DNA from: Deltaproteobacteria bacterium
Lineage (GTDB): Bacteria > Myxococcota > Kuafuiibacteriia > Kuafuiibacteriales > Kuafuiibacteriaceae
DNA: 64,000 nt
Direction: 5' to 3'
Assembly: GCA_040218735.1 (NCBI GenBank)
Contig: JAVJQW010000040.1
Coordinates: 16,837-80,836, forward strand
Shown: one piece after another, positions 6,516 to 57,576 of the stretch
Layout of the letters: the number at the start of each line of letters is the position of its first letter
How positions within the stretch are numbered: position 1 is the first letter of the stretch
The notes under the pieces: generated by a model
Told to the model about the DNA's origin: nothing
Database searches by the model: none
The model's input: only the letters and a program-made list of their open reading frames with translations
Position numbers and translations under genes: made by a program

Positions 6516-6525
6516 GGCGTCCTAT

Positions 6526-7667: not shown

Positions 7668-7950
7668 GTGAGCACGCCGATGACCGTCGAATCCCTTCGC
7701 ATCCGACCCGAAGACCAAGAGTCCACCGCCAGCGACATGAAGATCGTCGCGCGCAACGCCGCGCTCGGCGGTCACTACTCCGTGATGCAGGGCGCCGTTC
7801 GGCCCAAGGAGATCCTGGCCTTCCACACCCACCACAATGAAGACCAACACATGTACATCATCTCAGGTGAGTTGCACTTCGAGGTGGGGGGCGCCGACCG
7901 AGGCCGCGTACGTCGAGACGTCGACGCAAGGGGGCTTCGAGCGCTTCGTC
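7668..7950 (+). pseudogene. Cupin-domain gene remnant (internal deletion and frameshift)
   Basis: AGGAGG RBS plus GTG at 7668; cupin motif 1 HTHHNEDQHMYIISGEL. Motif 2 is missing, and the C-terminal piece YVETSTQGGFERFV is in another frame. Confidence 0.7.
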
Positions 7951-8490
7951 GAGCATCCTCTCCGACGCCCTCGAGACGCGGATCGTGAAGGAGGAGGGCG
8001 TGGCCGCGCTCGTGACCCGTCACCCTTCGGACGTTCTGGACGATGGCGCTGGCGCCGAGGTCGGGCTCGCGCTCGGCGTGCGTTTCGTGCGCGCCCACGC
8101 ACCGAGCCGCGGCTGTTCGCGTACATCGAGGCGCACCTTCAGAATGCCGTCGACGCGCTCACCCGGAGTGATGAGCTGGTCGAAATCCGCGACGCCGTCG
8201 CGAAGAACGTCGCGATCCAGGAGTACGGTGCGAAAGCGCTCGCGAGTCGGCTCCGCCTCTCGCTACGGGCGCTACAGCGTGAGGTGTCGAGACACGGGAC
8301 GACCGTGCGTGCGTTGCTGGACGAGGCGCGGTGTGCGCAGGCCAAACGGCTCCTCCAGGATCGTCGCCTCAGCGTCGATGAGATCGCCTTCGTGCTGAGT
8401 TACTCGGACGAGCGTGCGTTCCGCCGCGCCTTCAAGCGCATGACGGGCGAGAGCCCCGCGCAGTTCCGGCGCCGTCAGTCGTTGTCGTAG
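7951..8490 (+). pseudogene. AraC-family regulator remnant (N-terminus deleted, frameshifted)
   Basis: Intact HTH end LSVDEIAFVLSYSDERAFRRAFKRMTGESPAQFR; the N-terminal-domain fragment (AEVGLALGVRFVR) lies in a different frame; no proper start. Confidence 0.75.
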
Positions 8491-9575: not shown

Positions 9576-9669
9576 GTGTTGAACCTCCGGTCGCCATTCG
9601 AGACGTATTCGAACGGAGCGCGAAGGGGGCCCGACTCGGAAAGGTCGGCGAAACCGACCGTGAGCCGAC

Positions 9670-10956: not shown

Positions 10957-11132
10957 CGTTCGGAGGCGGATCTTGCGCTCCACCGTGTGCAGTCGCCCGC
11001 GTCCACGCGCGAGAGAGCAACGCGCCGGGTGCACCTTGCCCATGCGGCCTCGGGCGGAGCACGCACGCTCCGGGGTGAGAGCGTGCGTGCCGGGTTGGCG
11101 CGATCGTCGAACGAACAGTACGCTCGGCCGTC

Positions 11133-30754: not shown

Positions 30755-33160
30755 TCACGGTGAGCCTCCACAGGACGGGCTCGAGTTGTTCGAGCAGAAT
30801 CGTTCCGCGTAGCCCTCGAATGAGAATGGGCCGATTCGAATCGGTTGAATACTCACATCGGCGCAGAGGCACCCGCGCAAGTTCTCATCGGTACAACTTA
30901 GGCCGATGGGTTGTGCGACGGATCCCTCTACGACGAGGCTTGCGCTCGCGCCTGGGGTCGCGACGCTACAGTCGCAGCATGAGCCGCCCGAAAAGGCGCC
31001 GTTCGTGCCCCGGCACTGGGAGCATTCGAGCACCCGCTTGATCCATCGAGTACACAATCGCGCAAAGCCGGAGCCACCGCCGTACACCGCAGCTCCGATC
31101 TCGGCGCACACGCCACCACGGCAGTCCGCCGGGGCGTCGCGACCCCGATGCGTAAGGAGTGTTCCGGCGGCGCGTGCCTCGATGCCAACCTCGTAGGTGA
31201 GGCCGATATCGAGCCCGGACCGCTTGCGGATCCTCGACCCACTGACGAAGGCTCCGATCGTCCCGGAGAGTGTGGCGTGGCAACACTGCGTCGCCGAATC
31301 ACAGAAGGCGAGCGGGGGCTCCTCGCACCGGAGCGTCGATGAACACGTGCGCTCCAGGCTCAACCGCGCGCGCGCTTGAATTGGGGTGGGCGGTATGCGC
31401 GCTTCGATGAACCCGGTTGCCATCGACGACTCGCCGCACATGCCGTCGTCGGTTAGCTCGCTATCGAGGTCGGTCGATACTCCGATGGCGAAGATCGAGG
31501 GAAGCTCTGCCGAGAGCTCGAAGGCTGGCACGACGGCCAGGGGTGGCGGCCCGCCCATCGTACACACGGCCGTTCCGTCGACACGTCCGGATGACGGAGC
31601 CAAAAGGATGGCCCACTCGGTCGGATTCGTCAGGCTCGCGGAGAAGGCCACCGAGCCCCGATCGTTGAATCCGGTGGCTCTGCCGTCATTCGTGGAGACG
31701 GAACTGGGCGGTGACGGGTTGATGACGGCACGTACGACACCGCCGAAGTCGACGGACTCACCGTGCATCACGATCGTATCCACCGCGGCGCTGCGTGAAA
31801 CGAAGAGCCCGCTTCCGTTCGAAGTCCTGGCTCCGAAAGCCAGTTGTCCGCGACGGTTGATCGCCGGAAGGGTGTCGAGCACGCCCATCGTTTCGCTCGG
31901 GTCTCCCGGGGCCGGATCACCCGGAACCCACACGACATCGAGTGTGTTCCCGGGCGGCGCTCCATCGAGCGAGTAGCCGACACTTCCTGGTGATCCGGAT
32001 ACGAGGTAGTTCCGCGCGTCGCTCGCTCCGAGCCACGCGACCATTTGGCCGGACCCGTGGGCATGACTGCGCGCGCCCACGGATGTGATCGTTGCACCGG
32101 TCCCGGATAGTTCTTGCCCCGTGACCAATACCGCATGGCCCGCGCTTGAAACTATGCCATCGCGGAACTCGAACCCAGAGCTCGTCGGGATTCGCAACTC
32201 CGCTGCAAAATACTGGGTGCCGCCGCTCCCGAAGATAGCCGGACCTCGATTGGCGCCCGTCGAGAGGCTGTAGATGATCGACGGCTCGTCCTCCTCGTTC
32301 TTCTTCTTGGCTGGTCGAACTGGAAGTCCGGTAAGCTCATCTCCGACCAAGACACTGGGAGTTGTTCCTAGGGCGTGGTAGGTCGGGCACGGCGTCGTGC
32401 TCGTCTGCACCAGCGCTACGCGATAACCGATGTGCCGGCCGCTGCTCAGTGCGACGTCGTACAACGCGGAGACTTCGCAGTTCTCGAAGGGGCCCGGATC
32501 TCCGATTTTCAGTACAGGTGAGAGCCCGCCCCCAGAGCTTCGAAAGACGCCGTACTGACCCATCGCATCCGTTGCCATCATGGCGACGGTTCCGCTCTGG
32601 TAGCGAATGAGATCGGAATAGAAGCTCTCGACGTCGGCGCCGCGCCGAGCCATGAGTCGAGCTCCGCTGGGCGTTCCCTCGAACAGACCGACGGACTGCC
32701 CTTCGGGTAGGGCGGGGCCCCTCAGCTGCGCGAAGAAGAGGACGTGGTCATTGCGTCCGGCCCATAGACTGTCACCACGGCTGTATTGCGGAAAACTCGC
32801 GAAGACTGTGCCGGACTCCGTACCCGGCGCTGGCTCTCCTTCGCGCGCGATGAGTTTGAGATCGTCACCGACGCATCCGGCTACCCATATCGCCTCATCG
32901 TCTTGTCCCACCGTGGGGCCTGATATCGACGCGCGGAATGCGACCCGATCGTCGGGCGACAGCGCAAAGTTGGCGACGCCGGTAAAGACGGCGCCGTCGG
33001 CGGCTGGGAGTTTGGGTTCGTCGAAGGCCGCCATGCCAGGCTCGACCACGATGCAGAGGGGCTCGGCGGCGGACGACGGCGGACTGACCGTGACAGATGC
33101 AGCCACCGCGACGACTGCCAGGGCATGTCCTTCGCGAAACTGCGAGATCATGTGACCCAC
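30755..33160 (-). CDS. Secreted protein with NxxGxxAF-type tandem repeats and a Cys-rich C-terminal domain
   Basis: Signal-like N-terminus; LIAREGEPAPG, AINRRGQLAF, FNDRGSVAF repeats; many Cys in the last ~270 aa. Confidence 0.7.
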   Translation of the reverse strand: MGHMISQFREGHALAVVAVAASVTVSPPSSAAEPLCIVVEPGMAAFDEPKLPAADGAVFTGVANFALSPDDRVAFRASISGPTVGQDDEAIWVAGCVGDDLKLIAREGEPAPGTESGTVFASFPQYSRGDSLWAGRNDHVLFFAQLRGPALPEGQSVGLFEGTPSGARLMARRGADVESFYSDLIRYQSGTVAMMATDAMGQYGVFRSSGGGLSPVLKIGDPGPFENCEVSALYDVALSSGRHIGYRVALVQTSTTPCPTYHALGTTPSVLVGDELTGLPVRPAKKKNEEDEPSIIYSLSTGANRGPAIFGSGGTQYFAAELRIPTSSGFEFRDGIVSSAGHAVLVTGQELSGTGATITSVGARSHAHGSGQMVAWLGASDARNYLVSGSPGSVGYSLDGAPPGNTLDVVWVPGDPAPGDPSETMGVLDTLPAINRRGQLAFGARTSNGSGLFVSRSAAVDTIVMHGESVDFGGVVRAVINPSPPSSVSTNDGRATGFNDRGSVAFSASLTNPTEWAILLAPSSGRVDGTAVCTMGGPPPLAVVPAFELSAELPSIFAIGVSTDLDSELTDDGMCGESSMATGFIEARIPPTPIQARARLSLERTCSSTLRCEEPPLAFCDSATQCCHATLSGTIGAFVSGSRIRKRSGLDIGLTYEVGIEARAAGTLLTHRGRDAPADCRGGVCAEIGAAVYGGGSGFARLCTRWIKRVLECSQCRGTNGAFSGGSCCDCSVATPGASASLVVEGSVAQPIGLSCTDENLRGCLCADVSIQPIRIGPFSFEGYAERFCSNNSSPSCGGSP

Positions 33161-33224
33161 GATGACATGTTCAGAGATACGCGACCACGCGGGGATCGCC
33201 CATCGACGGTGCGGATATCAGAGA

Positions 33225-34193
33225 TCAACTCCGGACGGCGGCGATGGTGTCGCGGATGAGCTGCGCCATCGCGTCGTTGCCCGCGCCCGAGAGGTGCAGG
33301 CCGTCGCCGCCGTCGGTGTTCGCGCCGGCGATCTGGGACCAGTCGGCCACGAACATGTTGGGGCGGCGCGCGGCTTCCTGCGCGATGACGTCGTTGATGG
33401 CGGCGTTGCCGTCGTAATACGACTGGCCGTAGCTCGCGCCGTTCGGGCGTTGGGTTTGGGTGTTGACCCACACCACCGTCGGCGGCGGGTTCAACGTGGC
33501 GAGCTGGTCCATCGTCTCCGGAACGAAGCGCGCGTAGTCGTTGTGGTTGCTGCCGAGCTCGAGGACGAGCACGTCGGCGCCGGACTGCTCGGCCATCTGT
33601 CGGATCTCTGCGGGGGAGACGTGGTGGCCTGCGCCGCTGCCGTTGATCGCGCGTCCGCCTGCGGCGTCGATGGTGACGTCGGCGGCGCCCGCGCCGCGCA
33701 GAGCGGCTTCGGTCTGCCCGCGCGCGCCGACCATGAGGGAGTCGCCGATGACGTGGACGTCGAGGTTCTCGAGGCCCTGGCCCGGCGGGAGGTTGGACGC
33801 CGCGGTCGGTGCGGCGCTCGGCGCCGTCGTCGGCGCGGGGGCGCCGCCGCTGCCCCAGGAGGTCGGCTGCGGTCCGTTCGCGAAGCTCGCGCCCGGGAGC
33901 TGACCGGCCTGTCGGGGCGCCGCGTCCTGCCGGTGCATGTCGTTCGCGAGGTAGTCGATCAGCAGGCTCACGAGCGCCGCGGTGGCGAGCGCCTCGAAAA
34001 ACTGCATCGGGTCCTGCTGCTGCTGAAGCCACGCCTGGATGTCGTCGTCGGGCGCCGCGCCGATGGTCGCCTGATCCTCGGGTGCGAAGAGCTGCGGGAG
34101 CGTCTGCTCGGCCGGCAGCAGGTCGGCCCACGGCTGCGCGGGGCCCCATAACCAAGGGTTCAGGACGCCGAAGTCATTCGCGCGCGAGACCAT
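33225..34193 (-). CDS. SGNH/GDSL hydrolase (OatA C-domain-like) with N-terminal extension
   Basis: IGDSLM, GGR, LGSNH, DGLH blocks; Q/P/A-rich N-terminus without a signal peptide. Confidence 0.85.
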   Translation of the reverse strand: MVSRANDFGVLNPWLWGPAQPWADLLPAEQTLPQLFAPEDQATIGAAPDDDIQAWLQQQQDPMQFFEALATAALVSLLIDYLANDMHRQDAAPRQAGQLPGASFANGPQPTSWGSGGAPAPTTAPSAAPTAASNLPPGQGLENLDVHVIGDSLMVGARGQTEAALRGAGAADVTIDAAGGRAINGSGAGHHVSPAEIRQMAEQSGADVLVLELGSNHNDYARFVPETMDQLATLNPPPTVVWVNTQTQRPNGASYGQSYYDGNAAINDVIAQEAARRPNMFVADWSQIAGANTDGGDGLHLSGAGNDAMAQLIRDTIAAVRS

Positions 34194-34248
34194 GCCGACA
34201 CGATGCCGGATGGTGTGGGTGAGTGTCGCTTACGCGGCGAACGTAAGG

Positions 34249-35262
34249 TCAGCGCCAGCCGTCGAGCGCGCCGGGCTTCACGCGGAGGTACAGCGCGCCG
34301 AACGTGTGGATCGCGCTGGTCGCCATCACCACGTGCTCCCCGACGTCGCGCCCCGCGGCGACCGCCTCGCGGAGGACGACGAACGGGTCCGCTGCGCCGA
34401 GGTGGCCGTAGCGGTCGAGCGTGCCGAAGGTTTGCTCGGGACCGAGGCCGATCGTCTCGCGCACGGCGGCGATCACCTTGGGGGCGGTCTGGTTCGTGAG
34501 CAGGAAGTCGGGTCGCTCGATGCCGGCGGCTTCACACACGTTGCGGATCGAACGCTCGTAGCTCGTGATGTAGACCGGCTTGAAGACTTCGACGAACTGC
34601 TCGCGGTCCGTGCACTGACGGCAGTGCATCCCTTCGCGCAGCGTCTCTTCACTCGGCGGGTTCCTCGTCCCGCCGGCCGGGATGAAGAAGTAGTCGTTGA
34701 GGTGCGGGTACGTGACGAACGACGCCGGCCCGATCTCGATACCTCCGCCCGCCCGCACGACCGCAGCCGCGCCGCCGTCCGCGTGACCGAGGGCCTGCGC
34801 GGGGCGCGTGCGTTCGTAGTCGATCGACGGCGTCCATCGCTCGGCCGCGACGATCAGCGCCGCGCGCGGTGTCGACGCGCACCACTTCTTCGCGATGTCG
34901 AGCCCGGTGAGGCCGCCCGCGCAGCCCGCCGCGAGGTCGTAGCCGAAGCCGTCGCGGATGCCGACCTCGTTCATGATCTTCGCGGCCATCGACCACGACG
35001 GGACGTAGTCGCGGCTGATGCTCACGCAGATGACGAGCCCAACGTCCTCGGGCGCGACCCCCGCGTGCTCCAGCGCGCGGCGCGCAGCGGCCGCGCCGAT
35101 CGTGGAGGGGTGATCGTCGGGGCCGCCAATCGCCTTCTCGCCTAGGCCGAGCTCCTCGCGGAGGACCTGCTCGTCGATGCCCGACCGGCGCGCGATCTCC
35201 GCGGCGGTCATCCGCCCCTCGGGGACGTGCACTCCGATACCCGCGATGCCGGCGCTCTCCAT
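34249..35262 (-). CDS. KAS III (FabH)-like thiolase-fold enzyme with non-canonical triad
   Basis: IAGIGVHVP, DLAAGCAGG (catalytic Cys), IPAGGT; NQTA replaces HQAN; GHLGAAD replaces GNT. Confidence 0.88.
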   Translation of the reverse strand: MESAGIAGIGVHVPEGRMTAAEIARRSGIDEQVLREELGLGEKAIGGPDDHPSTIGAAAARRALEHAGVAPEDVGLVICVSISRDYVPSWSMAAKIMNEVGIRDGFGYDLAAGCAGGLTGLDIAKKWCASTPRAALIVAAERWTPSIDYERTRPAQALGHADGGAAAVVRAGGGIEIGPASFVTYPHLNDYFFIPAGGTRNPPSEETLREGMHCRQCTDREQFVEVFKPVYITSYERSIRNVCEAAGIERPDFLLTNQTAPKVIAAVRETIGLGPEQTFGTLDRYGHLGAADPFVVLREAVAAGRDVGEHVVMATSAIHTFGALYLRVKPGALDGWR

Positions 35263-35298
35263 GGTCGTGTTCGAGTCTGCGCGGGATCGGACGAAACG

Positions 35299-36552
35299 TC
35301 ACGCGCCGCCGAAGACACCTTCGGCGAGTGTCCCGGCGCGTTCCATGCGCGGGTGCGCGTCGACCTCGCCGAGCAGCGCCTCGGAGGCGAGGACGGTGTC
35401 GAGCTCGAGTGTGTTCTTGATGCGCACGATGCGAGCGTCGGCGGGCGCGAGCCCGACGAGCGACCTCAGCGCGAGGTCGACCGCGATGCGTTCGGACGGC
35501 GCGACCACCGGGAGGCGCCCGGCTTCGATCACCGTCGAGCCGACGACGTTGGTGTACGTCGTCTTCCAGTCGATCGCTTCGAACAGCCGGTTGGTGATCA
35601 CGTCGACGAGGCCCACGCCGATCGCGTTGCCGTGGCTCGCTTCGGTGAGTCGCGTGACGACGATGCGTTCGATGAACGGCGCGAGCGCGCCGCGGACCGC
35701 GCCCTGTTTGCGGTCGGCGACGAGCGCGTCGAAGCCGGCACCGCTGATGTCCTTGCCCATCTCCTCGATCACGAGGACGTCGAGGCGGTCGAAGAGGAGG
35801 CGCCCCATCATCTGGCGGGCGACCTCGAGGAGCTCCGGCTCGCGGTCGAACATCCGCGCGCCCGCGAGCACCTCCGCGTCGGCGATGTGTCCGTAGGCGT
35901 CCTCGACGAGCGCGACGCCGAACAGGAACGGCGTCGCCGCGACGATCGTCTTCGCGACCTCTTCGAGGACGCCACAGAACGCGTCGGCCGGGACGTTCCC
36001 GTGCAGCGTCGACGCGCTCATGCGTTTGCCGGTCCCGACCGCGAGCATCTTCACGAGCCCGCTCTCGACGCGGCCGTGGAAGTGCGTGTGCGGTTTGATG
36101 CGGTTGACGAGGACGATGCCGTCGGCGTCGAGCGCCTCCGCGCCGACGTGTACGTCGAGGCCGCGCACCTGGCCGACGACCTTCGTGTCCATCGTGGCGC
36201 GGACCGGCGCGCCGACGGAGACCTCGTCGACGCCGAGCGCGGCGAGCACTTCGATCTGGCCGTCCGCGGTCGCGGCGCCGTGGGTGCCCATCGCGGGGAA
36301 GACAAACGGCTCGGCACCGGCGCGTTTCAGCTGTTCGACGACGGCGCCGACGATCGAAGCGATGCCCGGGATGCCGCGGCTGCCCACGCCGACGGCGATA
36401 CGTCCTGCGGCCTTCGGCTGCAGCGCGCCGATCTGCTCGGCGATGTGCCGCGCCGGATCTTCGAGCTCACGGCGTTCGAACGTCTGACGCACCGAGGCCA
36501 TGCGCGGCAGCGCGCGCGGCGCGCCCCAGTCGAGATCGAGATCGGCGAACAC
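35299..36552 (-). CDS. LarA-like / DUF362-type domain protein
   Basis: VGVGSRGI, PAMGTHG, NRIKPHTHF, ESGLVKM, GKDISG, SHGNAIGVG. Confidence 0.82.
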   Translation of the reverse strand: MFADLDLDWGAPRALPRMASVRQTFERRELEDPARHIAEQIGALQPKAAGRIAVGVGSRGIPGIASIVGAVVEQLKRAGAEPFVFPAMGTHGAATADGQIEVLAALGVDEVSVGAPVRATMDTKVVGQVRGLDVHVGAEALDADGIVLVNRIKPHTHFHGRVESGLVKMLAVGTGKRMSASTLHGNVPADAFCGVLEEVAKTIVAATPFLFGVALVEDAYGHIADAEVLAGARMFDREPELLEVARQMMGRLLFDRLDVLVIEEMGKDISGAGFDALVADRKQGAVRGALAPFIERIVVTRLTEASHGNAIGVGLVDVITNRLFEAIDWKTTYTNVVGSTVIEAGRLPVVAPSERIAVDLALRSLVGLAPADARIVRIKNTLELDTVLASEALLGEVDAHPRMERAGTLAEGVFGGA

Positions 36553-36554
36553 GG

Positions 36555-37088
36555 CTACAGCTCTAACAGGCGTTCGACCCCTTCGACGATCTGCTCGGCG
36601 CGTCGTTCGAGGAGCGCGTCGGAGACGTTCTGGATCGGGTGGTCGAGGACGATGCGCGGGAACGTCGCCTCGGGGCGCCAGTGGGAGAGGTGGCGCTCGA
36701 GCACGTCGACGAACGGCTCCGTCACGACGACGACCGCCGCTGCGCCTTTCAGGTGAAGTTGAACCGCGTCGAGCGAACCGCCCGCTGAGCAGCTCCCTCA
36801 GTCGAAGACGCCGAGGATCAGGAGGCCCTGCTCCTCGGCGATGCGCTCCAGGGTGTGGTCGCTCTCGCGACGGGTGATGCGCGCCTTCTTCGTGAGCCCG
36901 GTGATCTTCACGCCGCGCGCTTCGAGGCGGCGGCCGACGTCGTCCAGGATGCGGCGCGAGTTGGGTTTGCCGGAGTCGACGAAGTGCACCTCGCGGGTGT
37001 TCTTCGGCGTGTGAATCGGGAGCGGACGCGGGCGCGGCGTGGGGTTCGGATCGATCAGGATCTCACACTGCGGTTCGAAGTCGCGCAT
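36555..37088 (-). CDS. UGSC-family selenoprotein (Sec at the in-frame TGA, 36800-36798), 177 aa
   Basis: Minus strand GTC TTC GAC TGA GGG AGC TGC = VFD-U-GSC. The frame continues GSCSAGGSLDAVQL...VVVVTEPF...IVLDHPI...EQIVEGVERLLEL to TAG at 36557-36555, 2 nt before the next gene's start. Confidence 0.88.
36764..36797 (-). promoter_or_regulatory. Putative bacterial SECIS element
   Basis: After UGA: GGGAGCUGCUC AGCGGG CGG UUCGCU CGACGCGG. A stem-loop with a G-containing apical loop about 17 nt downstream of UGA. Confidence 0.6.
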
Positions 37089-37095
37089 CAGCAGG

Positions 37096-38133
37096 TCACC
37101 GAGTCCGGTCCATGATGAAGACCTCCGCGTCCGGTCGCAACTCGACGGCGTGGGTGATGTTGCCGACCCACCCCGGGATCACCGCGGAGAACTTCCCCGC
37201 GGCGCCGCCGGACTCGAGGAACGTGAGCTGCTCGTAGGACCGCAGCGGCGAGCGCGGCGCTTCGGGGTCGACGGACATCCGTGGATCCGGATCGGCGGGG
37301 ACCCGACCGAGTCGAACCAGCTCCGGGCCGGGGCGCTTCGAGTGTTCGAAGACGAAACGCCGCGCGTCGTCGCGATCGAAGGCCTCGCAGATCAGGCTCG
37401 CGTGCTCGGGTGCGAGCACGACGGTGTAGCCGCCCGTCTGCCAGTAGAAGTTGGTGGAGCCGTAGTGGGCGATCGTCCCGGCGATCGTCTCGAGGAGTAT
37501 CTCGGCGCTCGACGCGTAGTGGTTGTTGACGCTGTTCGGCCCCTCCGCGGCGGTGATGGTGATCGCGGATTGCTCGGGGTCGAGGCCGAACTGATCGTGA
37601 TACCGCGTCCACCGCGTCTGTTCGTGCTCCGCGACGCAGAACGAGATGCGCCCCGGGTGACCCAGCACGCCGAATTCTTCGAGGATGCCGCCGGCGCGCC
37701 CGCAGAAGTGACGCACCATGTTCGCGAAGCGCCCGACGGTGAGGTTGATGCGCGCGCTGCCGCCGAGGGTGTTCGCGCCGCTCGCGAAGCCGAGCTCTTG
37801 GACGATCGGCCCGCTGACGATCACCAACACCGCGCACCCGCCGGTCGTGACGGCGACGCCGTTGATGTTGAAGCTCGGCGCGAGCAACAGCCGAGTGAGC
37901 GGGCGTAGCACCGGCGCGTATTCGTCGCGGCACCCAGCCATCACGGCGATCGCCGCGACCTGGATCGCGCGCACTTCGAGCCCGTAGTCGTCGAGCTCGA
38001 CGAGGGTCTCGGTCGCCGACCACCCCAGCGCCGCGAGCATCGATTCGACGCGGCTCCCGTAGGGCGGGACGACCGGGAGGCCGTCGCTCCACCCGCGTTC
38101 GAAGCAGGCTTCGATGTCGTTGTCGAGCGCCAC
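37096..38133 (-). CDS. UGSC-associated protein of unknown function
   Basis: GWSDGLPVVPP, AVMAGC, VIVSGPI, TVGRF, EGP motifs of the family commonly found next to UGSC genes. Start trimmed to GTG 38133. Confidence 0.8.
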   Translation of the reverse strand: MALDNDIEACFERGWSDGLPVVPPYGSRVESMLAALGWSATETLVELDDYGLEVRAIQVAAIAVMAGCRDEYAPVLRPLTRLLLAPSFNINGVAVTTGGCAVLVIVSGPIVQELGFASGANTLGGSARINLTVGRFANMVRHFCGRAGGILEEFGVLGHPGRISFCVAEHEQTRWTRYHDQFGLDPEQSAITITAAEGPNSVNNHYASSAEILLETIAGTIAHYGSTNFYWQTGGYTVVLAPEHASLICEAFDRDDARRFVFEHSKRPGPELVRLGRVPADPDPRMSVDPEAPRSPLRSYEQLTFLESGGAAGKFSAVIPGWVGNITHAVELRPDAEVFIMDRTR

Positions 38134-38205
38134 GGTCGTCGCGTCGATTATGACTTCTCGGCTCCCCCAGTCCAATGGACGACGTTCTGCGGTAGGCTGC
38201 GCGCG

Positions 38206-38898
38206 ATGCGCACCGTGACGATCGCCGACCGCTTCCGAGGCCCGCCCGACTCTGCAAACGGCGGGTATGCGTGCGGCGTGGTCGCTGCGGCGCTCGAGAC
38301 GTCCGAGCCCGTGCAGGTCACGCTGCGGAGCCCGCCTCCGTTGGATACGCCGCTGTCGATCGTCGAGGTCGAGGGCGGTGTTGAGATGAAACACGGTGAG
38401 ACAGTCGTCGCCGAAGGGCGTACGAGCACGCTCGATCTCGAGGTGCCGGCGGCCGTGGATCGCGCGACGGCCGAGGTCGCGCAGAAGAACTTCGTCGGGT
38501 TCGAGAACCACTTCCTCCCGACGTGTTTTGTGTGCGGAACGAAGCACGAGCAAGACGGCTTGCGCATCTTCCCCGGGCGCGTCGAAGGGCGCGAGCTCGC
38601 GGCGGCTCCGTGGGATCCGACGCCGGACCTCTACGAAGGCGGGCGCATCGCGTCGGTGTTCATGTGGTCGGCGCTGGACTGCCCGTCGTGCTTCGGCGCG
38701 TTCATCACCGAGCCGGTGCTGCTCGGACGACTCGTCGCGCAGATCGACGAGCGGCCGCCCCAGGGGGAGAAGCTCGTCGCGGTGGGGTGGCCCATCGAGC
38801 GCGACGGGCGAAAGATCTTCGCGGGCTCGGCGATCTTCGGCGAGGACGGTCGGGTCTTGGGGAAGGCGTTCGCGACCTGGATCGCGTTCAAGCGCTGA
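38206..38898 (+). CDS. Double hotdog-fold thioesterase-like protein
   Basis: RFRGPPDSANGGY, LRSPPPLD, CFVCG, ALDCP, DGRKIFAGSA. Confidence 0.85.
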   Translation: MRTVTIADRFRGPPDSANGGYACGVVAAALETSEPVQVTLRSPPPLDTPLSIVEVEGGVEMKHGETVVAEGRTSTLDLEVPAAVDRATAEVAQKNFVGFENHFLPTCFVCGTKHEQDGLRIFPGRVEGRELAAAPWDPTPDLYEGGRIASVFMWSALDCPSCFGAFITEPVLLGRLVAQIDERPPQGEKLVAVGWPIERDGRKIFAGSAIFGEDGRVLGKAFATWIAFKR

Positions 38899-38899
38899 C

Positions 38900-39550
38900 T
38901 CACTTCCGCTTCGTCGCCTTCTTCTTCGTGACCTTCTTCTTCGCGGTCCTCTTCTTCGTCGGCGGGTGGAACGACTCGCCGCACGCGAGCATCTGCACGA
39001 ACTTCGCGATCTTCTTCTCCCGGGCCTCGGGTTTGATCGCATCGTGGATCCGGTAGAGGAACGCGAAGCGGTTGTTGCGGTCGATCGCTTCGAACGCCGC
39101 CTTCGCCTTCTTGTTGGCGTCGAGCGCCGCGGCGAAGTCATCGGGGACCTGGATCGTGGAGTGGGAGTCGTACGCGCGCTCCCAGCGCCCATCCGCCTTC
39201 GCCGCTTCGACCTGGGCGAGCCCCGCCTTGCGCATCTTCTTCTTCGCGATCAGCTCCTCGGCGATCCCGCGGTTGATCTTGGACCACTTGCTCCGCTTGC
39301 GGCGCGGGGTGACGCGGATGATGAAGTAGTCGTCGTCCCAGGTCTTTCGCTGCCCGTCGATCCACCCGTACATCAGCGCGCCCTCGCGCGTTTGTTCGTA
39401 GGTGATGGTGCGAACGTCCCGCCCCTTCTTGCCCAGTTTGACCCACAGCCCCGCGTCGCGTGTGTGCTCTACGCGCAGCCAGGCCACCCACGCGGCCATG
39501 GTCGCGAAGGCGATGACCTCCAGGTCTTTGTGCGTTTCGGTCTCGGGCAT
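38900..39550 (-). CDS. YdeI/OmpD-associated family protein
   Basis: YGWIDG, TPRRKRSKWSKIN, VPDDFAAAL; GAGGAG RBS before ATG 39550. Confidence 0.92.
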   Translation of the reverse strand: MPETETHKDLEVIAFATMAAWVAWLRVEHTRDAGLWVKLGKKGRDVRTITYEQTREGALMYGWIDGQRKTWDDDYFIIRVTPRRKRSKWSKINRGIAEELIAKKKMRKAGLAQVEAAKADGRWERAYDSHSTIQVPDDFAAALDANKKAKAAFEAIDRNNRFAFLYRIHDAIKPEAREKKIAKFVQMLACGESFHPPTKKRTAKKKVTKKKATKRK

Positions 39551-43203: not shown

Positions 43204-46200
43204 ATGCACATTCGACTCACACCCCTGCTGATCGCGCTCGCCTGTCCCGTCACCGCCTGGGCCCAGACGGTCGTCCCGCCTGGAAACCTCGTGGGTTCGC
43301 AGACCTGGACCCCCGGCGCTTCGCCGTACGTGCTCGCCGGTGACCTCACGGTCCCGGCCGGCATCACGCTCACGATCCAGGCCGGCACCACCGTCACCCT
43401 CGGCCCGGGCGACACCCTCGGGTCGGGCTTGGACAGCGCGCGCACCGAGCTGTCGGTGCTCGGGACGATCGTCGTGAACGGGACGCCCGCGAGCCCGGTG
43501 ACGTTCGACTCCGGCGCGGTCGGCCCCGCGACGTCCGACTTCTACGGCATCGTGCTGCAGGCCGGGAGCACGGCGACGCTATCGAATGCGGTCGTCGAGC
43601 ACGGTCACCGCTGCATCGAGGACCACTCGACCGGAGCGACCATCACCAACGTCGACGCGATCGATTGCAGCTACGGCTACTACGTCGTCGGCGGCTCACC
43701 GACGATCACCGGCGGCGCGATCGAGGACGGGAGCAGCTACGGCATCTACGCGACGACGAGCGCCAACGTCACCGCGTCCGGGCTGCGTGTGCGGAACAAC
43801 TCCAGCTACGGCGTCTACGCGCTGAACGCTTCGTTCGCGCTCACCGGTTCGCTGATCGAAGGCAACGGCAGCCACGGCGTCTACTACCGCAGCTCGAGCG
43901 GCTCACACACGACGTCGCTCCAACACAACACGATCTACGACAACGGCACGTACGGCGTGTACCTCTACGAACAGTCCGGCACGTTGACGGTGACGATGCG
44001 CGACAACGTCGTGCTCGACAACAGCTCGACGGGCGTCGTGCGCTCGGGCTCGCCGATCTCCACCATCTCGCACAACCTCGTCTACGGACACTCCACGAAC
44101 TACTCCGGCGCCTCCCCGGGGACGGGCGGTGTCACCGAGAACCCGCTCCTCGTGAACGCGGCGAGCGGTGACTTCCGGCCGACTTCACGCTCGGGCGCGC
44201 GCATGGCGGCGTCGGACGGGATGGACATCGGCGCGTTCGCGTACGACGGCGCGGTGACGCCGGCGCTGGTCGGCCACCTGTTCGTCAACACGACGCTCAC
44301 CGCCGCGGCGTCGCCGCACATGGTGACGGGCGATCTCACGATCGAGCCGAACGTCACGCTCACGATCGAGCCGGGCGCCGTCGTCCGGTTTGCCTCGGGC
44401 ACGGATCAGATGGGCGCCAACGCGGACACGAGCCGGACCGAGCTTCGCGTCGCGGGTACCCTCGTCGCGGACGGGACCACCACGCTCCCGATCGTGATGG
44501 AGAGCGCCGCCGCGTCTCCGTCGCGCGGCGATTGGTATGGCGTGCACTTCTTGGCCGGCGCGTCGTCGTCGATCATCGACTTCGCGTCGATTCGCTTCGC
44601 GCGGTACGGCGTGCACAGCAACGCACCCGCGGGGACGACCGTGCAGCGTACGACGATCGAGGAGTCCTCCTCGTACGGCGTGTACGTCACGACCGGCGCG
44701 CTCGATCTCGACCAAGCGATCGTCCGCGACAACTCGAGCTACGGCGTCTACTACCTGAACGGGAGCGGCTCGATCACCGGCTCGCAAATCTACGACAACG
44801 GGAGCCACGGCGTGTACGCGCGCAGCTCGAGCGGGAGCCACAACGTCTCGATCCTCGGGAACACGATCGCCGAGAACGGCACCTACGGCGCGTATCTGTA
44901 CGAGCAGTCGGGCACCCTCACCACGACGTTCCGCGACAACCTCGTCCTATCGAACAGCTCGACGGGCGTGGTGCGTTCGGGCTCGCCGATCTCCACGATC
45001 ACCTACAACCTCGTGTGGGGGCACTCGACGGACTACTCGGGTGCGTCCCCGGGGACGGGCGGCGTGACCGAGAACCCGCTGGTCGTGGACCGGGTCGGCC
45101 GTGACTTCCGCGTGACCTCGAACTCCCCCGCGCGCAACCACGCGTCGGACGGCACGGACATCGGCGCCATCGCGTTCGACGGGACGCCGACGGTCGGCGT
45201 GCACGGGCACCTGTACACGAACACGACGTGGAGCTCGGTCGGCGGCCCAATCGATGTTCTCGGCGACATCACGATCGAGCCGGGCGTCACGCTCACCATC
45301 GCGGCGGGCACCGAGCTGCGCTTCGCGGCCGGCGCGGACAGCATGGGCGGAAACGCCGCGACGGATCGCACCGAGCTGATCGTGTTGGGGCGCCTCGTAG
45401 CGGACGGCACGACGCCTTCGCCGGTGGTCTTCCGCAGCGCGTCGACCACGCCCAGCCGGGGTGACTGGTACGGCGTGCGGCTCACGAGCTCTGCGGCGAA
45501 CTCGTCGATCGACAACGCCGAGATCAGCCACGCGCGTTACGGCGTCCATTCGCAGGCGCCGAACACCACCTCCGTCACGCAGTCGCGCGTGCACGAGTCG
45601 TCGTCGTACGGGATGTACATCGACGGCGGCGCGCTCGTCGTCGACGGCACGCGGGTCTACGACAACGGGAGCTACGGCGTGTACGCGCTCAACGCATCGG
45701 CGACGCTGACGAACCTCGTCGTGCACGAGAACGGCTCGCACGGGATCTACGCGCGCAGCTCGAGCGGCAGTCACAACGTCGTGCTCAACAACCTCACGGT
45801 CTGGAACAACGGGACGTACGGCGTCTATCTGTACGAGCAGTCCGGCACGTTGACGGTGTCGCTGCGGAACTCGATCGTCGCGGAGAACAGCTCGACCGGC
45901 GTCGTCCGATCCGGCTCCCCGATCTCCACGATCAACTACAACAACGTGTGGGGCCACACGACGGACTACTCGGGCGCGAGCGGCGGCACCGGCGCGATCA
46001 GCGCCAACCCGCAGTTCGTGAACACGATGCTCGACAACTTCTACTTGCTCCCGAGCTCCACGAGCATCGACGCCGCGGACCCGACGACCGCTGCCGCCTC
46101 GGACTTCGACGGCACGGCGCGCCCGCTCGACGGCAACGGCAACACGATGGCGGTGCCGGACCTCGGCGCGTTCGAGTACAACCCGTCCGCGAACCGCTGG

Positions 46201-49200
46201 CCGATCGCCGACGCCGGCTCCGACCGCGTCGTGACGAGCGGGCTCCCCGTCGCGTTCGACGGCACCGGGTCCTTCGATCCCGACGGCACGGTGATGAACT
46301 ACGTCTGGGACTTCGGCGATGGCTCCATGGCCTCCGGCGCGACGGTGATGCACACCTTCGCGGGCGGCACGGACCGCACCGTCACGCTGACGGTCACGGA
46401 CAACGCGGGCGCGATCGACGTCGACGCGATCGCGGTGGAGGTGAACCTCCCGCCGAACGCCGACGCCGGCCCGCAGCGCTTCGCGGACCCCGCGGAGATC
46501 GTCACGTTCAACGGCAACGGCTCCACGGACAGCGACGGGACGATCGTCGCGTACCTGTGGGACTTCGGCGACGGGGCCACCGCGAGCGGCCAGTCGGTCA
46601 CGCACCAGTACGCGACCGGCGGGCAGTACACGGTGACGCTCACCGTGACGGACGACGACGGCGCGACGGGCGTCGCGACGACGACCGCGAACATCACCGG
46701 AAACGACGGCGCGCCGCCGAGCATCGTGCACACGCCGATCACCGCAGCGCAGCCGGCGGGCACGGCGGTCACGATCTCCGCGGAGGTCACGGACTCGTCG
46801 GGTGTGGCGAGCGTCGCGCTCTACTTCCGGACGCAGGGGGCGCCCGCGTTCTCCGCGGCGCCGATGGGGAACACCGCGGGTGCGACGTACCAGGTCGACA
46901 TCCCCGCGGGCAGCGTCGCGGCGCCGGGTGTGGAGTATTACATTCAAGCGACCGACTCCGCGGCGTCGAGCAACACCGGCACGAACCCGCCGGGTGCGCC
47001 GGGCTCCGTGCACACGTTCACGGTGGCGGCGCCGGCCGGGCCGTCGATTACCCACGTGCCGGTGGGCGACGGGCAGGCGGCCGGGCAGTCCGTCGGCATC
47101 GCGGCGACGGTGACCTCCGGGACGCCGCTCGCCTCCGTCACGCTCTACTACCGAACGCAGGGGGGCTCGGCGTTCACGTCGGCGCCGATGACGAACACCG
47201 CGGGCGACGATTGGGCCGGGCAGATCCCCGGCGCCGCGGTCGTCACGCCCGCCGTCGAGTACTACCTGGAGGCGGTCGACACCGCGAACCCGGCGAACAC
47301 CGCGACGCATCCGGTATCGATGGGCGCGGTGAACGCGTTCACGGTGACGGCGAGCGATACTTCACCGCCCACGATCGTGCACACGCCGGTCGGTGACGGG
47401 CAGGCCGAGGCCACCGACATCACGGTGATGGCGACCGTGACGGACGGGACGGGCGTCGCGTCGGTCGAGCTGTTCTACCGCGTGTCGGGCGGCGGCGGCT
47501 TCGCGACCGCGGCGATGACGAACACCTCGGGCGACACCTGGACGGGCACGATCCCGGCGGCGTCGGTGACGCAGCTCGGCGTCGACTACTACATCGCGGC
47601 GGCGGACTCCGCGACGCCGTCCAACGCGGCGACCGACCCGACGGGTGCGCCGGGCGCGTTCCACGGCTTCACGGTGATGCGGCAGTTCACCGTCAGCGAG
47701 GGCGACCTCGTGGTCACCGAGGTGATGAACGACCCGACGGGCTCCGAGACGGACCGCGAGTGGTTCGAGCTGTACAACACGACGAGCGCGCCGATCGACA
47801 TCGACGGGTTCACGTTCGCGGACCTCGGTACCGACAGCTTCACGGTCAACGGCGGCGGCCCCGTCGTGGTGCCGGCGGGCGGCTACCTCGTGCTGGGGCG
47901 CAACGACGACACCGCGGCGAACGGCGGCGTGACGGTCGGGTACGTGTACTCGGGCATGGCGCTGTCGAACAACGACGACGAGATCATCATCAGCGCCGGA
48001 CCGACCGAGGTGGATCGCGTCGTCTACGATGCGGGCGCGACGTTTCCGAACACGCCGGGCGCGACGATCTCGCTGGACCCCGATCAGCTCGACTACACAT
48101 CGAACGACGACGGCGCGAGCTGGTGCGTCGCGACCTCGATGCTCGCGAGTGGTGACTTCGGGACGCCGGGCGCTCGCAACGATCCTTGCGTGCCCATCGA
48201 CGACACGGATCCGCCGATCGTCACCCACGTCCCGGTCACGGACGGGCAGCCGAACGGCGTCGCGATCCCGGTGGTGGTGGTTGCAACGGACGCGAGCGGC
48301 GTCGCGGTGGTCGAGGTCTATCACCGCGTGCGGGGCGGCGGCGCGTTCGAGGTGGCGACGCTGACGGACGTCGGCGGCGGGACCTACCTGGGCGAGATCC
48401 CGGCGACGTCGGTGACGCTCGCGGGCGTCGACTACTACATCCGCGCGGTGGACGACTCCGCGGTGTCGAACGAACGCTTCGCACCGACGGAGGCCGACGC
48501 GATGCCGTTCACGTTCGACGTCACGGCGATGGACGGCGCGGGCCCGTCGATCACTCACGTCCCGATCGCTGACGGTCGCCCGAGCGGCGTCGCGGTCGAC
48601 GTCTTCGCGCGGGTCCTCGATCCGTCGGGCATCGGCGCGGCGTCGGTCAGCTACCGCACCGGCGGCGGCGCGTGGATGACCGCGACGATGACCGACACCG
48701 GCGGCGGGCTCTACAGCGGGCAGATCCCGGCGGACGCGGTGACGACCGACGGCGTCGAATATTTCCTCGCGGCGGAGGACACCAGCGCAAACGCGGCGGA
48801 GTATCCGGTCGGCGGCGCGGCTTCACCGCTCGCGTTCACGGTGACGCTCGTCGACGTCGACGGCCCGGTGATCGCCCACACCCCGGTCGCGAATGGCCAG
48901 CCGGCGGGTGCCGCGGTGCCGATCGTCGCGACGGTCACGGACGAGTCGACCGTCGCCGAGGTGCGGGTGTATTTCCGCGCGACGGGGACGGCGTCGTTTG
49001 TCTCGGCGGCGATGACCGCGAACGGGGACATGTTCACCGGCGAGATCCCCGCCGCGCTCGTGACGGGCGGCGGTGTCGACTATTACCTGGAGGCGACCGA
49101 CGCGTCCGACGACCAGAACCTCTCGCGAGATCCCGAGGCGGCGCCGATGGCGGTGCACAGCTTCACGATCGCCGAGGACGGCGCGGACACGGAGGCGCCT

Positions 49201-49638
49201 GCGATCCTGCACCTCCCCGAGACGGAGACGACGGTGGGGACGCCGGTTTCGATCGTCGCGGAGATCGTCGACGCGTCGGGCGTCGCGACGGCCGAGGTCC
49301 TGTACCGCGCGCCGGGGTCGTCTTCGTTCGTGAGCCTCACGCTCGAGAACGAGGCGGGCACGAACCGTTACGCGGGCATCATCCCGGCGACGGCGGTCGT
49401 GGTCGGCCAGCTCGAGTACTACCTGCGCGCGCGCGACGGGGCGCCGGCGATGAACGAGGCGACGCGCCCCGAGGCCGCCCCGGACGAGGTCTTCGCGATC
49501 AGCGTCACCGCGAGCACGGGCACGGAGCCGCCGCCGGTCGACGACGGCGGGTGCAGCTGCGCCGCGGAACGTTCCTCGCGCGGTGGACTGTGGCTGGCCG
49601 TGGGGCTGTTGGCGCTGGTGCTGCGACGCCGACGCTGA
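43204..49638 (+). CDS. Giant surface protein (2144 aa): 3 beta-helix repeat units, PKD x2, 7 Ig-like repeats, lamin-tail domain, MYXO-CTERM-like tail
   Basis: Signal peptide; DLGAFE anchor-like motif; WDFGDG twice; VTEVMNDP...EWFELYN; tail GGCSCA...LWLAVGLLALVLRRRR. Confidence 0.93.
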   Translation: MHIRLTPLLIALACPVTAWAQTVVPPGNLVGSQTWTPGASPYVLAGDLTVPAGITLTIQAGTTVTLGPGDTLGSGLDSARTELSVLGTIVVNGTPASPVTFDSGAVGPATSDFYGIVLQAGSTATLSNAVVEHGHRCIEDHSTGATITNVDAIDCSYGYYVVGGSPTITGGAIEDGSSYGIYATTSANVTASGLRVRNNSSYGVYALNASFALTGSLIEGNGSHGVYYRSSSGSHTTSLQHNTIYDNGTYGVYLYEQSGTLTVTMRDNVVLDNSSTGVVRSGSPISTISHNLVYGHSTNYSGASPGTGGVTENPLLVNAASGDFRPTSRSGARMAASDGMDIGAFAYDGAVTPALVGHLFVNTTLTAAASPHMVTGDLTIEPNVTLTIEPGAVVRFASGTDQMGANADTSRTELRVAGTLVADGTTTLPIVMESAAASPSRGDWYGVHFLAGASSSIIDFASIRFARYGVHSNAPAGTTVQRTTIEESSSYGVYVTTGALDLDQAIVRDNSSYGVYYLNGSGSITGSQIYDNGSHGVYARSSSGSHNVSILGNTIAENGTYGAYLYEQSGTLTTTFRDNLVLSNSSTGVVRSGSPISTITYNLVWGHSTDYSGASPGTGGVTENPLVVDRVGRDFRVTSNSPARNHASDGTDIGAIAFDGTPTVGVHGHLYTNTTWSSVGGPIDVLGDITIEPGVTLTIAAGTELRFAAGADSMGGNAATDRTELIVLGRLVADGTTPSPVVFRSASTTPSRGDWYGVRLTSSAANSSIDNAEISHARYGVHSQAPNTTSVTQSRVHESSSYGMYIDGGALVVDGTRVYDNGSYGVYALNASATLTNLVVHENGSHGIYARSSSGSHNVVLNNLTVWNNGTYGVYLYEQSGTLTVSLRNSIVAENSSTGVVRSGSPISTINYNNVWGHTTDYSGASGGTGAISANPQFVNTMLDNFYLLPSSTSIDAADPTTAAASDFDGTARPLDGNGNTMAVPDLGAFEYNPSANRWPIADAGSDRVVTSGLPVAFDGTGSFDPDGTVMNYVWDFGDGSMASGATVMHTFAGGTDRTVTLTVTDNAGAIDVDAIAVEVNLPPNADAGPQRFADPAEIVTFNGNGSTDSDGTIVAYLWDFGDGATASGQSVTHQYATGGQYTVTLTVTDDDGATGVATTTANITGNDGAPPSIVHTPITAAQPAGTAVTISAEVTDSSGVASVALYFRTQGAPAFSAAPMGNTAGATYQVDIPAGSVAAPGVEYYIQATDSAASSNTGTNPPGAPGSVHTFTVAAPAGPSITHVPVGDGQAAGQSVGIAATVTSGTPLASVTLYYRTQGGSAFTSAPMTNTAGDDWAGQIPGAAVVTPAVEYYLEAVDTANPANTATHPVSMGAVNAFTVTASDTSPPTIVHTPVGDGQAEATDITVMATVTDGTGVASVELFYRVSGGGGFATAAMTNTSGDTWTGTIPAASVTQLGVDYYIAAADSATPSNAATDPTGAPGAFHGFTVMRQFTVSEGDLVVTEVMNDPTGSETDREWFELYNTTSAPIDIDGFTFADLGTDSFTVNGGGPVVVPAGGYLVLGRNDDTAANGGVTVGYVYSGMALSNNDDEIIISAGPTEVDRVVYDAGATFPNTPGATISLDPDQLDYTSNDDGASWCVATSMLASGDFGTPGARNDPCVPIDDTDPPIVTHVPVTDGQPNGVAIPVVVVATDASGVAVVEVYHRVRGGGAFEVATLTDVGGGTYLGEIPATSVTLAGVDYYIRAVDDSAVSNERFAPTEADAMPFTFDVTAMDGAGPSITHVPIADGRPSGVAVDVFARVLDPSGIGAASVSYRTGGGAWMTATMTDTGGGLYSGQIPADAVTTDGVEYFLAAEDTSANAAEYPVGGAASPLAFTVTLVDVDGPVIAHTPVANGQPAGAAVPIVATVTDESTVAEVRVYFRATGTASFVSAAMTANGDMFTGEIPAALVTGGGVDYYLEATDASDDQNLSRDPEAAPMAVHSFTIAEDGADTEAPAILHLPETETTVGTPVSIVAEIVDASGVATAEVLYRAPGSSSFVSLTLENEAGTNRYAGIIPATAVVVGQLEYYLRARDGAPAMNEATRPEAAPDEVFAISVTASTGTEPPPVDDGGCSCAAERSSRGGLWLAVGLLALVLRRRR
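43864..46010 (+). repeat. Three intragenic tandem units with a 933-nt (311-aa) period
   Basis: The block NGSHGVY.RSSSGSH...YEQSGTL...NSSTGVVRSGSPISTI starts at about 43864, 44797 and 45730. Confidence 0.85.
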
Positions 49639-56336: not shown

Positions 56337-57437
56337 TCACGCCGCGGCGGCGCGAGTCGTCGGGTGCGCCGGGCGCGCCGGTTCGATGGAGAGCCCGACC
56401 GTCGCGATGACGTCGGCGCGCGCGTCGGAGGTGATCTCGCCGAGCGCGAGCAGCGGAGGCATCGACGCGACGCGCAGGTGGCGGAGGATGCCGCGGACCT
56501 CGTCGCGCACGACCAGCACGGCGCCGAGGCACTCGGCGGTCAGCATCGCGTCGTGGACGGAGCGGATGATCGTGACGGAGCGCTCGGTGTCGAGCTCACG
56601 CTCCGGCTCGCAGTACCACTCGAGCTCGTGGTTGAGGTTCTCCGAGAGCATCACCATCGACAGGCGCGCGTCGCGGGCGAAGCGCTTGGTGATCGACGTG
56701 GCGAGCGCGAGGCGGACACGCGCGAGCGCCTGCTCGCGCGTCTGCTCTTGGAGGCCCTCCGTGGCGTACGTGTCGAGGATGGTGGTGAGGTCGCGGATCG
56801 GAACGCCCTCGTTCAACAGCTCGCGGAGCACCCACAGCAGGTGCCCGAGGCGCGGCGACGCCGCGCGGAACGTGTGCACGGCTTTCGCGTCGGACGCCTC
56901 CGCGAGGTCGACGAGGGTTGCGACCTGGTTGGCCTGCAGGAGCGCGCCGAGGCGCTGGCGGAGGATCTCGCCGAGGTGGGCGGCGATGACCATGGACGCG
57001 CTGATGTGCTCGGCGTTCGGCGCTGCGTCGGGGTCGACCCAGTAACCGTCGAAGCCGAAGACCGGATCGCGGACGAGCTCGGTGTCGTTGGGCGCATCGG
57101 TGACGTCGACGACGAGGCGCTCGCTGGGCTGCACGCGACCGGTGGCGACGACGCGCCCCGACAGGCGGATGCGGTACGCGTACTTGCCGATCGACAGGTC
57201 GTCGATGATGCGGACGACCGGCATGAGGAAGCCCCAGTCGTGGTACAGCCAGCGGCGGAGCTGCTGGACACAGGGCACCAGTGAGTCGGCGTCCGCGGCC
57301 TCCGCGAGGGGGATCAGGCCGTAGCCGATCTCCAGGCGCACGAGGTCGTGCTCGCCCCAGTCGGCTTGTTCGATCGTCGGATCGTCAGCGCGCGGCGTGA
57401 TGTAGGCGGACAGCTGGTCGAGGTAGGCGTTCCACAT
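56337..57437 (-). CDS. FHIPEP-family (FlhA/SctV) cytoplasmic domain only
   Basis: LEIGYGLIPL, GFLMPVVRIIDD, DPVFGFDGYWV, VIAAHLGEIL, LLNEGVPIRDLTTILD; no TM segments. Confidence 0.88.
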   Translation of the reverse strand: MWNAYLDQLSAYITPRADDPTIEQADWGEHDLVRLEIGYGLIPLAEAADADSLVPCVQQLRRWLYHDWGFLMPVVRIIDDLSIGKYAYRIRLSGRVVATGRVQPSERLVVDVTDAPNDTELVRDPVFGFDGYWVDPDAAPNAEHISASMVIAAHLGEILRQRLGALLQANQVATLVDLAEASDAKAVHTFRAASPRLGHLLWVLRELLNEGVPIRDLTTILDTYATEGLQEQTREQALARVRLALATSITKRFARDARLSMVMLSENLNHELEWYCEPERELDTERSVTIIRSVHDAMLTAECLGAVLVVRDEVRGILRHLRVASMPPLLALGEITSDARADVIATVGLSIEPARPAHPTTRAAAA

Positions 57438-57454
57438 GGCTCGGTGACGCGTAA

Positions 57455-57470
57455 TGCACTTCGGATGCCG
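57455..57470 (-). promoter_or_regulatory. Putative sigma54 (-24/-12) promoter
   Basis: Minus strand CGGCAT-CCGAA-GTGCA, about 19 nt upstream of ATG 57437. Confidence 0.5.
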
Positions 57471-57576
57471 ACGCTCAATGCATCACGCCGACACACGGGC
57501 GTCGGGATCTCGACACCGTGCGCTGTCGGTTGCGTGACGATCGCCCCGAAATCGGACAGTGGGATAGGGTGGTCGC

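Follow-up and report, generated by a model that had tools for sequence, protein, structure and literature searches.

The window, by which we mean the whole 64,000-nucleotide stretch of DNA that was analysed, carries on its minus strand a gene of the UGSC selenoprotein family, which lies directly downstream of the gene for a 345-residue protein (hereafter the partner) and upstream of genes for LarA-like and FabH-like proteins. The features of the locus are as follows.

38147..38174, minus strand: sigma-70-like promoter match, 14 nt before the GTG of the partner gene; a consensus match only
37096..38133, minus strand: partner gene, 345 aa, with the 'Unknown_1' domain, recognised by an A-V-M-A-G-C block as in the available part of PMC2398784 (Fig. 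S1A)
36555..37088, minus strand: UGSC-family selenoprotein gene, 177 aa with TGA read as Sec (U97), from the reading frame and a match to PF24696
37041..37067, minus strand: N-terminal arm of the UGSC protein (residues 8-16, C-E-I-L-I-D-P), probable partner-docking strand, from a model of a homologous complex
36798..36800, minus strand: putative Sec97 codon, an in-frame TGA, from the homologue column and TGA counts across loci
36761..36795, minus strand: whole predicted SECIS with its lower stem (+3 to +9 with +31 to +37), from a 40-nt fold
36770..36784, minus strand: SECIS upper stem-loop, +14 to +28 after the UGA, CGGGC-GGUUC-GCUCG, with G-U at +20/+21
35299..36552, minus strand: nickel-pincer-dependent isomerase, LarA family group 22 (NF052515, 453 bits, cut-off 400)
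34249..35262, minus strand: FabH-like gene, 3-oxoacyl-ACP synthase III fold, below all NCBIfam cut-offs

Reading frame and family of the UGSC gene

The upstream half of the UGSC gene is an open reading frame of 96 aa (37088-36798, minus strand) that ends in TGA. An earlier note on this DNA had proposed that the frame stays open past this triplet and fills the gap to the next gene. Indeed, the same frame continues for 80 further codons to a TAG (36557-36555), and the next gene begins at 36552, 2 nt beyond; at the other end, 7 nt separate the end of the partner gene from the start of UGSC. The UxxC redox motif claimed in the same note was borne out on translation, with TGA read as Sec, as D96-U97-G98-S99-C100. 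GC3 is 0.92 5' of the TGA and 0.85 3' of it, like that of other genes in the window, and residues D96, G98, C100, D107, F126, H150 and P151 are retained across both halves. In the second half no start codon precedes the GTG at residue 122, which lies beyond both G-S-C and D107. The sigma-70-like sequence ahead of the partner gene is the sole such match in 33000-39000, where 0.2 would be expected.

Codons ending in A or T had been described as unusually dense beyond the TGA. Their density is real: they make up six of codons 101-115, a stretch picked after the fact, and this is matched by 0.26% of 7016 overlapping 15-codon windows taken from 15 genes of the window. What RNA structure accounts for is limited to GGT, in the loop of the hairpin described below, and GTT, in its lower stem, and across the 69 TGA genes with enough flank only codon +7 is strongly A/T-ending (0.97).

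The read-through protein belongs to the Pfam family PF24696 (UGSC), with a score of 90.7 bits against a gathering cut-off of 25 and residues 26-175 aligned to positions 21-170 of a 172-position profile. The NCBIfam equivalog model NF041046 is covered almost throughout (3-146 of 147), but at 79.9 bits the protein falls short of its cut-off of 125, as do two close relatives with 72.3 and 84.2. When the two halves are taken separately, the first aligns to 19-90 and the second to 94-170 of PF24696, and to 3-68 and 70-146, respectively, of NF041046; since each half fits its own adjoining half of the profile, their continuity goes beyond chance.

A family of UGSC-containing selenoproteins has been predicted since 2007 (PMC1976440; also PMC2398784) and was the fifth most abundant in the GOS survey, with 255 sequences (PMC2398784); a 2026 review counts it among proteins with largely uncharacterised functions (PMC13188914), all according to the available parts of these papers. 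The open-licence literature searched yielded no study of function or structure for UGSC or its partner, and UGSC is absent from the main text of bioRxiv 2022.07.06.499078, as far as that text was available. With a family published as early as 2007 and covered by both Pfam and NCBIfam models, the window protein is not a new kind of protein. It carries the feature by which the accessible passages of PMC2398784 and PMC13188914 define the family, U-G-S-C with Sec from an in-frame TGA, and the U-G-S-C, K-P-N, E-P-F and H-P-I blocks of the GOS sequences reproduced in the former; it also shares the length of the family, the in-frame TGA and the link to Unknown_1. It differs in belonging to a divergent clade, together with P0004-6, L001 and L002 (SH-aLRT 100, quick tree), that is marked by a Cys-bearing N-terminal arm and a FabH-like gene downstream and is scattered over Chloroflexota, Halieaceae and the window host. 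The window protein is 38-40% identical to L001 and L002 and about 27-33% identical to the copies at other loci, and no other named family was found in the Atlas for a clade member. The window gene is thus a new, divergent member of the known UGSC selenoprotein family, inside PF24696 and outside the narrower NF041046. Elsewhere, UGSC domains occur fused to NifU-like, TetR-type DNA-binding and pyridine-nucleotide disulphide oxidoreductase domains (P0073, P0152, P0272).

A word-index search with the read-through protein gave no match, whereas a full HMMER search (phmmer against 1.84 billion representatives) succeeded, and the best 150 of its 199 matches were examined. The top match is the window's own 96-aa piece. 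Of the 149 others listed, 101 are full-length. Column 97 reads C in 97 of them, though a C there may conceal a Sec entered under that letter. Another 30 are shorter than 140 aa: 19 end one residue before the site (18 of them in D), 10 are C-terminal pieces and one is of neither kind. Separately stored halves of this sort are the fragments that gene callers leave of a UGA-recoded gene. The remaining 18 listed matches are longer, some of them fused to the partner. One homologue, P0004, has W at the recoded site and was probably translated with another table. The alignment that had been proposed as a check therefore turned out as predicted, with Cys or TGA at the site and similarity on both flanks.

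The codon at the site and the hairpin downstream

Related loci were fetched by means of the partner gene, and hence blind to the codon in UGSC, the best 80 of at least 609 stretches being taken. They contain 77 UGSC matches, of which 73 cover the site, and the codon there is TGA in 71, TGC in one and TCG in one. The close clade is represented among these 80 by two loci, L001 from Dehalococcoidia and L002 from Halieaceae, both with TGA at the site and with the gene order partner, UGSC, FabH-like. A plasmid sample, in which 12 of 16 UGSC matches were fetched, gave 10 Cys codons and two TGA. Altogether 11 UGSC genes with a Cys codon (TGC or TGT) are available at the DNA level, six archaeal and five bacterial.

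Several loci carry two or three partner/UGSC copies (L053:5306, L055:15446 and 17467, L058, L063, L072), with variant motifs among them, such as U-G-A-C in L053 and an L072 copy with neither Cys nor Sec; this suggests hetero-oligomers or substrate-specific paralogues. Haloarchaeal plasmids (L081-L083, L090-L092) encode the Cys form, which is often flanked there by a partner copy on both sides, with CoA-transferase or DUF6282 genes nearby.

A SECIS is present downstream of the UGA, as had been claimed. In the conserved helix +14 to +19 pairs with +23 to +28, and over 68 sequences (the window and 67 locus sequences, three duplicates and one cut-off gene having been left out) this pairing holds in 96.8% of 408 cells, a value reached by none of 500 shuffles, while slid registers give 19-62%. 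RNAalifold, unprompted, picks the same +14 to +28 helix, and the third base of codon +8, which is mostly synonymous, tracks its pairing base. Covariation counts inherit the relatedness of the sequences, the C-G/G-C swap at +18/+24 amounting to only about three changes on a quick tree. The loop G-U (+20/+21) is found in 67 of 70 TGA genes and in none of the 11 Cys-codon genes; the complete 5-bp stem occurs in 66 of 70 against 3 of 11, the three Cys genes that retain it indicating that the stem is partly imposed by the amino acids. The five bacterial Cys genes have neither (G-U 0/5, stem 0/5). Within the window, stem and G-U come together at 3 of 1258 TGA triplets, the UGSC site among them, and the element is intact despite the long end branch of this gene (1.0 changes per column).

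The register first drawn for the hairpin, AGCGGG-CGG-UUCGCU, did not stand, the conserved one lying two bases further on. Its folding energy is -4.1 kcal/mol, its pair probability is 0.00-0.02 at all lengths folded, and it is not conserved (55.9% paired, with 422 of 500 shuffles as high).

Bacterial SECIS elements were judged by a 3-9 nt loop with G in its first two positions, a stem of 4-16 bp, a distance of 16-37 nt from the UGA and an energy of at most -7.5 kcal/mol. The window's local hairpin has all of these, with a 3-nt loop beginning with G, an upper stem of 6 bp, a distance of 19 nt between UGA and loop, and -7.7 kcal/mol; whole-region folds vary with length. It likewise fits the bacterial model in the accessible part of PMC13188914 (Fig. 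2A) in loop position, leading G, stem and energy, and differs from it in nothing essential, with a competing hairpin overlapping the window element. The generic test is weak by itself, being passed by 273 of 1257 window TGA triplets, and neither it nor the folding z-scores (-0.4 to -1.7) discriminate in DNA of 69% GC.

When the 40 nt after the UGA are folded (-17.8 kcal/mol), a lower stem that involves the rare GTT codon is added, which is missing from the family consensus given by RNAalifold. In the window mRNA a competing hairpin (+3 to +11 with +15 to +23), which overlaps the SECIS at 36775-36795 on the minus strand, is favoured over it when 30, 35 or 60 nt are folded. A ribosome at the UGA would cover the first 11 nt. 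With these masked, the probability of the SECIS is 0.91-0.99 for 30-60 nt, 0.71 for 80 nt and 0.01 for 100 nt; the 100-nt fold loses the SECIS even so. Of 71 genes folded over 40 nt, none favours the competing hairpin. Of 14 genes with an AGY Ser codon at +4, 10 have T at +22, compared with 4 of the other 57, and the association recurs in three separate clades; the competing hairpin could serve to hide the SECIS before a ribosome gets there, or could be inherited.

These data bear on two other readings of the TGA. It might have arisen in a Cys gene (TGC/TGT) by nonsense mutation or as an error of sequencing, or might mark the boundary between two small genes. One change leads from TGC to TGA, the 11 Cys versions exist at the DNA level and databases do hold the halves as separate proteins; against this, 71 of 73 related genes, both nearest ones included, share the TGA at this codon, the TGA genes carry the SECIS that Cys versions are without, the first available start of a second gene comes too late for G-S-C and D107, and the modelled protein folds as a single domain. 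We regard this reading as very improbable. Hardly more credible is a decoding of UGA as Trp, Gly or Cys, by a changed code or by leaky read-through. The W of P0004 would agree with it, but TGA ends 26 of the 32 long codon-biased frames in the window and so is the main stop, which argues against a changed genetic code, homologues have a Cys column at the site, and the SECIS tracks with TGA. The best reading remains that of the earlier note, a UGA-recoded UxxC selenoprotein, in view of the Cys/TGA column, the two-sided similarity and the intact, family-conserved SECIS. We have very little doubt that 37088-36555 is a real UGSC Sec gene, and consider it highly probable that it is one gene, encoding a 177-aa UGSC selenoprotein by recoding of the TGA.

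Selenocysteine decoding in the host

No selA, selB or tRNA-Sec was found in the 64-kb window, nor selD among the window proteins scanned. An ARAGORN call of a tRNA-Arg at 3785-3884 (minus strand) was considered as a disguised tRNA-Sec and rejected; the sequence is Pro/Ala-rich and coding-like, pairs poorly and has no Rfam match, and the call is most likely false. Among the related loci, the UGSC operon of L002 adjoins tRNA-Sec, selB (339 bits, cut-off 242) and selA (575 bits, cut-off 268), and selA and selB occur in L070 and selB in L088; the tRNA scans took in L001-L060. In L002 (Halieaceae, 4124-10306) the partner-UGSC-FabH operon lies directly next to these genes, an arrangement that may represent a cassette travelling with its own decoding machinery.

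The window gene could be a cassette stranded in a host without Sec machinery after transfer from a Sec-using donor, translation then ending at residue 96. Such a fate would suit the window's want of sel genes and the scattering of the clade over Chloroflexota, Halieaceae and this host, which, together with the occurrence of the module on plasmids, means that the module moves. A stranded gene would hardly be expected to show host-like GC3, an open frame with conserved residues in both halves, a SECIS still intact on a long end branch and intact flanking genes, and we hold this explanation to be unlikely. The window gene suggests Sec use by its host, which very probably still decodes Sec at this gene.

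By the standard bacterial mechanism, Sec insertion depends on SelB (PMC13188914, section 5, and PMC9312934, in their available parts). At UGA97, the hairpin 14-28 nt downstream of the codon would present its G-U loop to SelB, which in the window host would deliver Sec-tRNA to the codon. For annotation it matters that the NCBIfam cut-off lies above the scores of the clade, and that the 19 relatives cut short before the site are stored as shortened proteins.

The partner, the predicted complex and a proposed function

The partner has 491 homologues and matched no Pfam family. Its A-V-M-A-G-C block and the pattern that follows are those of the Unknown_1 domain in the accessible part of PMC2398784, where a fusion of Unknown_1 to UGSC is reported (Fig. 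S1A); in the window the two are separate genes. Two further partner-UGSC fusions were found (P0035, P0061). A UGSC gene lies within 600 nt of the partner in 67 of the 80 loci (the best 80 of at least 609), and a partner match occurs in 16 of 16 UGSC-matching plasmids. Compared with the fusion in the available portion of that paper, the adjacency in 67 of 80 loci and the binding mode described below are new here. The partner has one invariant Cys and three invariant His. Its AlphaFold2 model (pLDDT 92) has no clear structural match (best Z 4.5), and a likeness to class I fumarate hydratase was rejected as too low (TM about 0.3, Z 4.0).

The 177-aa UGSC protein, modelled by AlphaFold2 with Cys for Sec, forms a single domain (pLDDT 96, pTM 0.88) in which strands and helices alternate and U97-x-x-C100 stands at the start of the helix following strand 3. 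Its best matches by structure are sandwiches of flavodoxin-like type, and none of them stands out (Z 9-10.5, rmsd 2.3-3.9, 108-139 residues aligned). The predicted fold is thus a flavodoxin-like alpha/beta/alpha one, a common architecture that shows no function. A Trx-like fold was guessed for UGSC earlier (PMC2398784, in its accessible text); no thioredoxin-fold entry is among the structural matches listed for the model, and such lists cannot exclude the fold. No solved relative was found by sequence for either protein.

Complex prediction for the natural Cys-encoding pair of L075, whose proteins are about 26-34% identical to the window pair, gave a score of 0.78 against 0.00 for the best of three controls. 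The mark used is reached by 116 of 157 solved pairs and 2 of 215 mismatched ones, and is rough for alignments like these. The runs share at least 90% of contacts, with a partner pLDDT of at least 87. In the confidently predicted interface the N-terminal arm of UGSC (residues 1-16) lies against the D-G-L-P region of the partner, and the active-site motif lies outside. The C-E-I-L-I-D-P of the window protein aligns with this docking arm, and C-x-x-[LM]-[VI]-[SDN]-P is found in all 22 N-halves of the clade. By homology with the L075 pair, the window UGSC protein probably binds its partner.

We propose that the 177-aa protein most likely serves a two-subunit enzyme as its small redox subunit. It would dock by the N-terminal arm on the 345-aa partner, which would hold the substrate; the selenolate would attack a bond of that substrate, Cys100 would resolve the adduct to a selenenyl-sulfide, and the thioredoxin system would re-reduce the latter. 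For the redox cycle with thioredoxin the chances seem about even. Thioredoxin-reductase-like matches, annotated trxB, occur in 6 of 92 related loci, the query's own included, and a UGSC-Pyr_redox_2 fusion exists; no thioredoxin-system genes were found in the window. As a class of substrate, a small carboxylic acid or an acyl-CoA intermediate is put forward quite tentatively. Recurrent neighbours of the related loci are TctC receptors (17 loci), SDRs (15), CoA transferases (9) and enoyl-CoA hydratases (9), classes that belong to carboxylate uptake and CoA metabolism and are common in these genomes.

PrdB and GrdB (PF07355) offer a comparison. They share with UGSC a U-x-x-C after a hydrophobic strand, a Glu 12 residues beyond the Cys, and then G/K-I-P-T-V, a likeness in spacing that was seen by eye with the GOS sequences in the accessible part of PMC2398784 and serves as a lead, homology not being established by search. 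They are the Sec subunits of the multi-subunit D-proline and glycine reductases (PMC13188914, available part), and an analogous role is proposed here for UGSC. They differ in that the UGSC partner belongs to another family and that no GrdA, GrdC or PrdA-type genes were recognised among the recurrent UGSC neighbours. PF07355 is absent among the 25 listed of 51 weakly matching Pfam families (130 alignment members), which does not exclude kinship, and a plasmid search at E 10 returned no records annotated PrdB or GrdB. That UGSC is the tethered catalytic Sec subunit of a widespread two-subunit reductase or lyase, distantly related to PrdB/GrdB and recycled by thioredoxin reductase, is in our estimation a speculative proposal.

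A comparably uncertain alternative accepts Sec insertion and makes UGSC a stand-alone thioredoxin-like antioxidant, as the literature has assumed, or U97 and C100 ligands of a metal or Fe-S centre. The extra N-terminal Cys of the clade (C-x3-6-C in 20 of 22 N-halves, with one Cys in the window copy), the homologue fused to a NifU-like domain and the invariant Cys and His residues of the partner would favour it. Set against it are the near-obligate linkage to the partner, the fusions and the predicted complex, as well as the alternating strands and helices of the model, in which the motif follows strand 3, and its flavodoxin-like best matches. If the two-subunit proposal is true, the divergent clade would link a Sec enzyme with a condensing enzyme of FabH-like type, which would suggest acyl-thioester chemistry. 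For work on function, the defined partner, the predicted interface and the fold offer a handle, as do natural Cys-encoding pairs, whose expression requires no Sec machinery.

In the 92 related loci, the FabH-like gene has matches in L001 and L002 only, the nearest related operons found, and the LarA-like gene, although it sits within the window operon, has none. The LarA-like, GDSL, upstream and YdeI neighbours are common to none of these loci, and a scan of window proteins turned up no recognisable larB, larC or larE cofactor genes. A divergently oriented gene of 230 aa (38206-38898, plus strand) has no Pfam match; its product looks like a hot-dog thioesterase.

Elsewhere in the window, 11079-13904 (plus strand) encodes an amino-acid permease fused to a PTS EIIA-2 domain. 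At 56337-57482 (minus strand) a protein with a FHIPEP (FlhA-like) domain is encoded that measures just some 370 aa; among the scanned proteins of the window, none besides it was recognised as belonging to secretion or flagella. A repetitive secreted protein of 2144 aa (43204-49638, plus strand) has at its end the motif G-G-C-S-C and a hydrophobic tail capped by Arg, presumably like a myxobacterial sorting signal. The host looks myxobacterial, several Ser/Thr kinases being encoded in the window, whose GC content is 69%.
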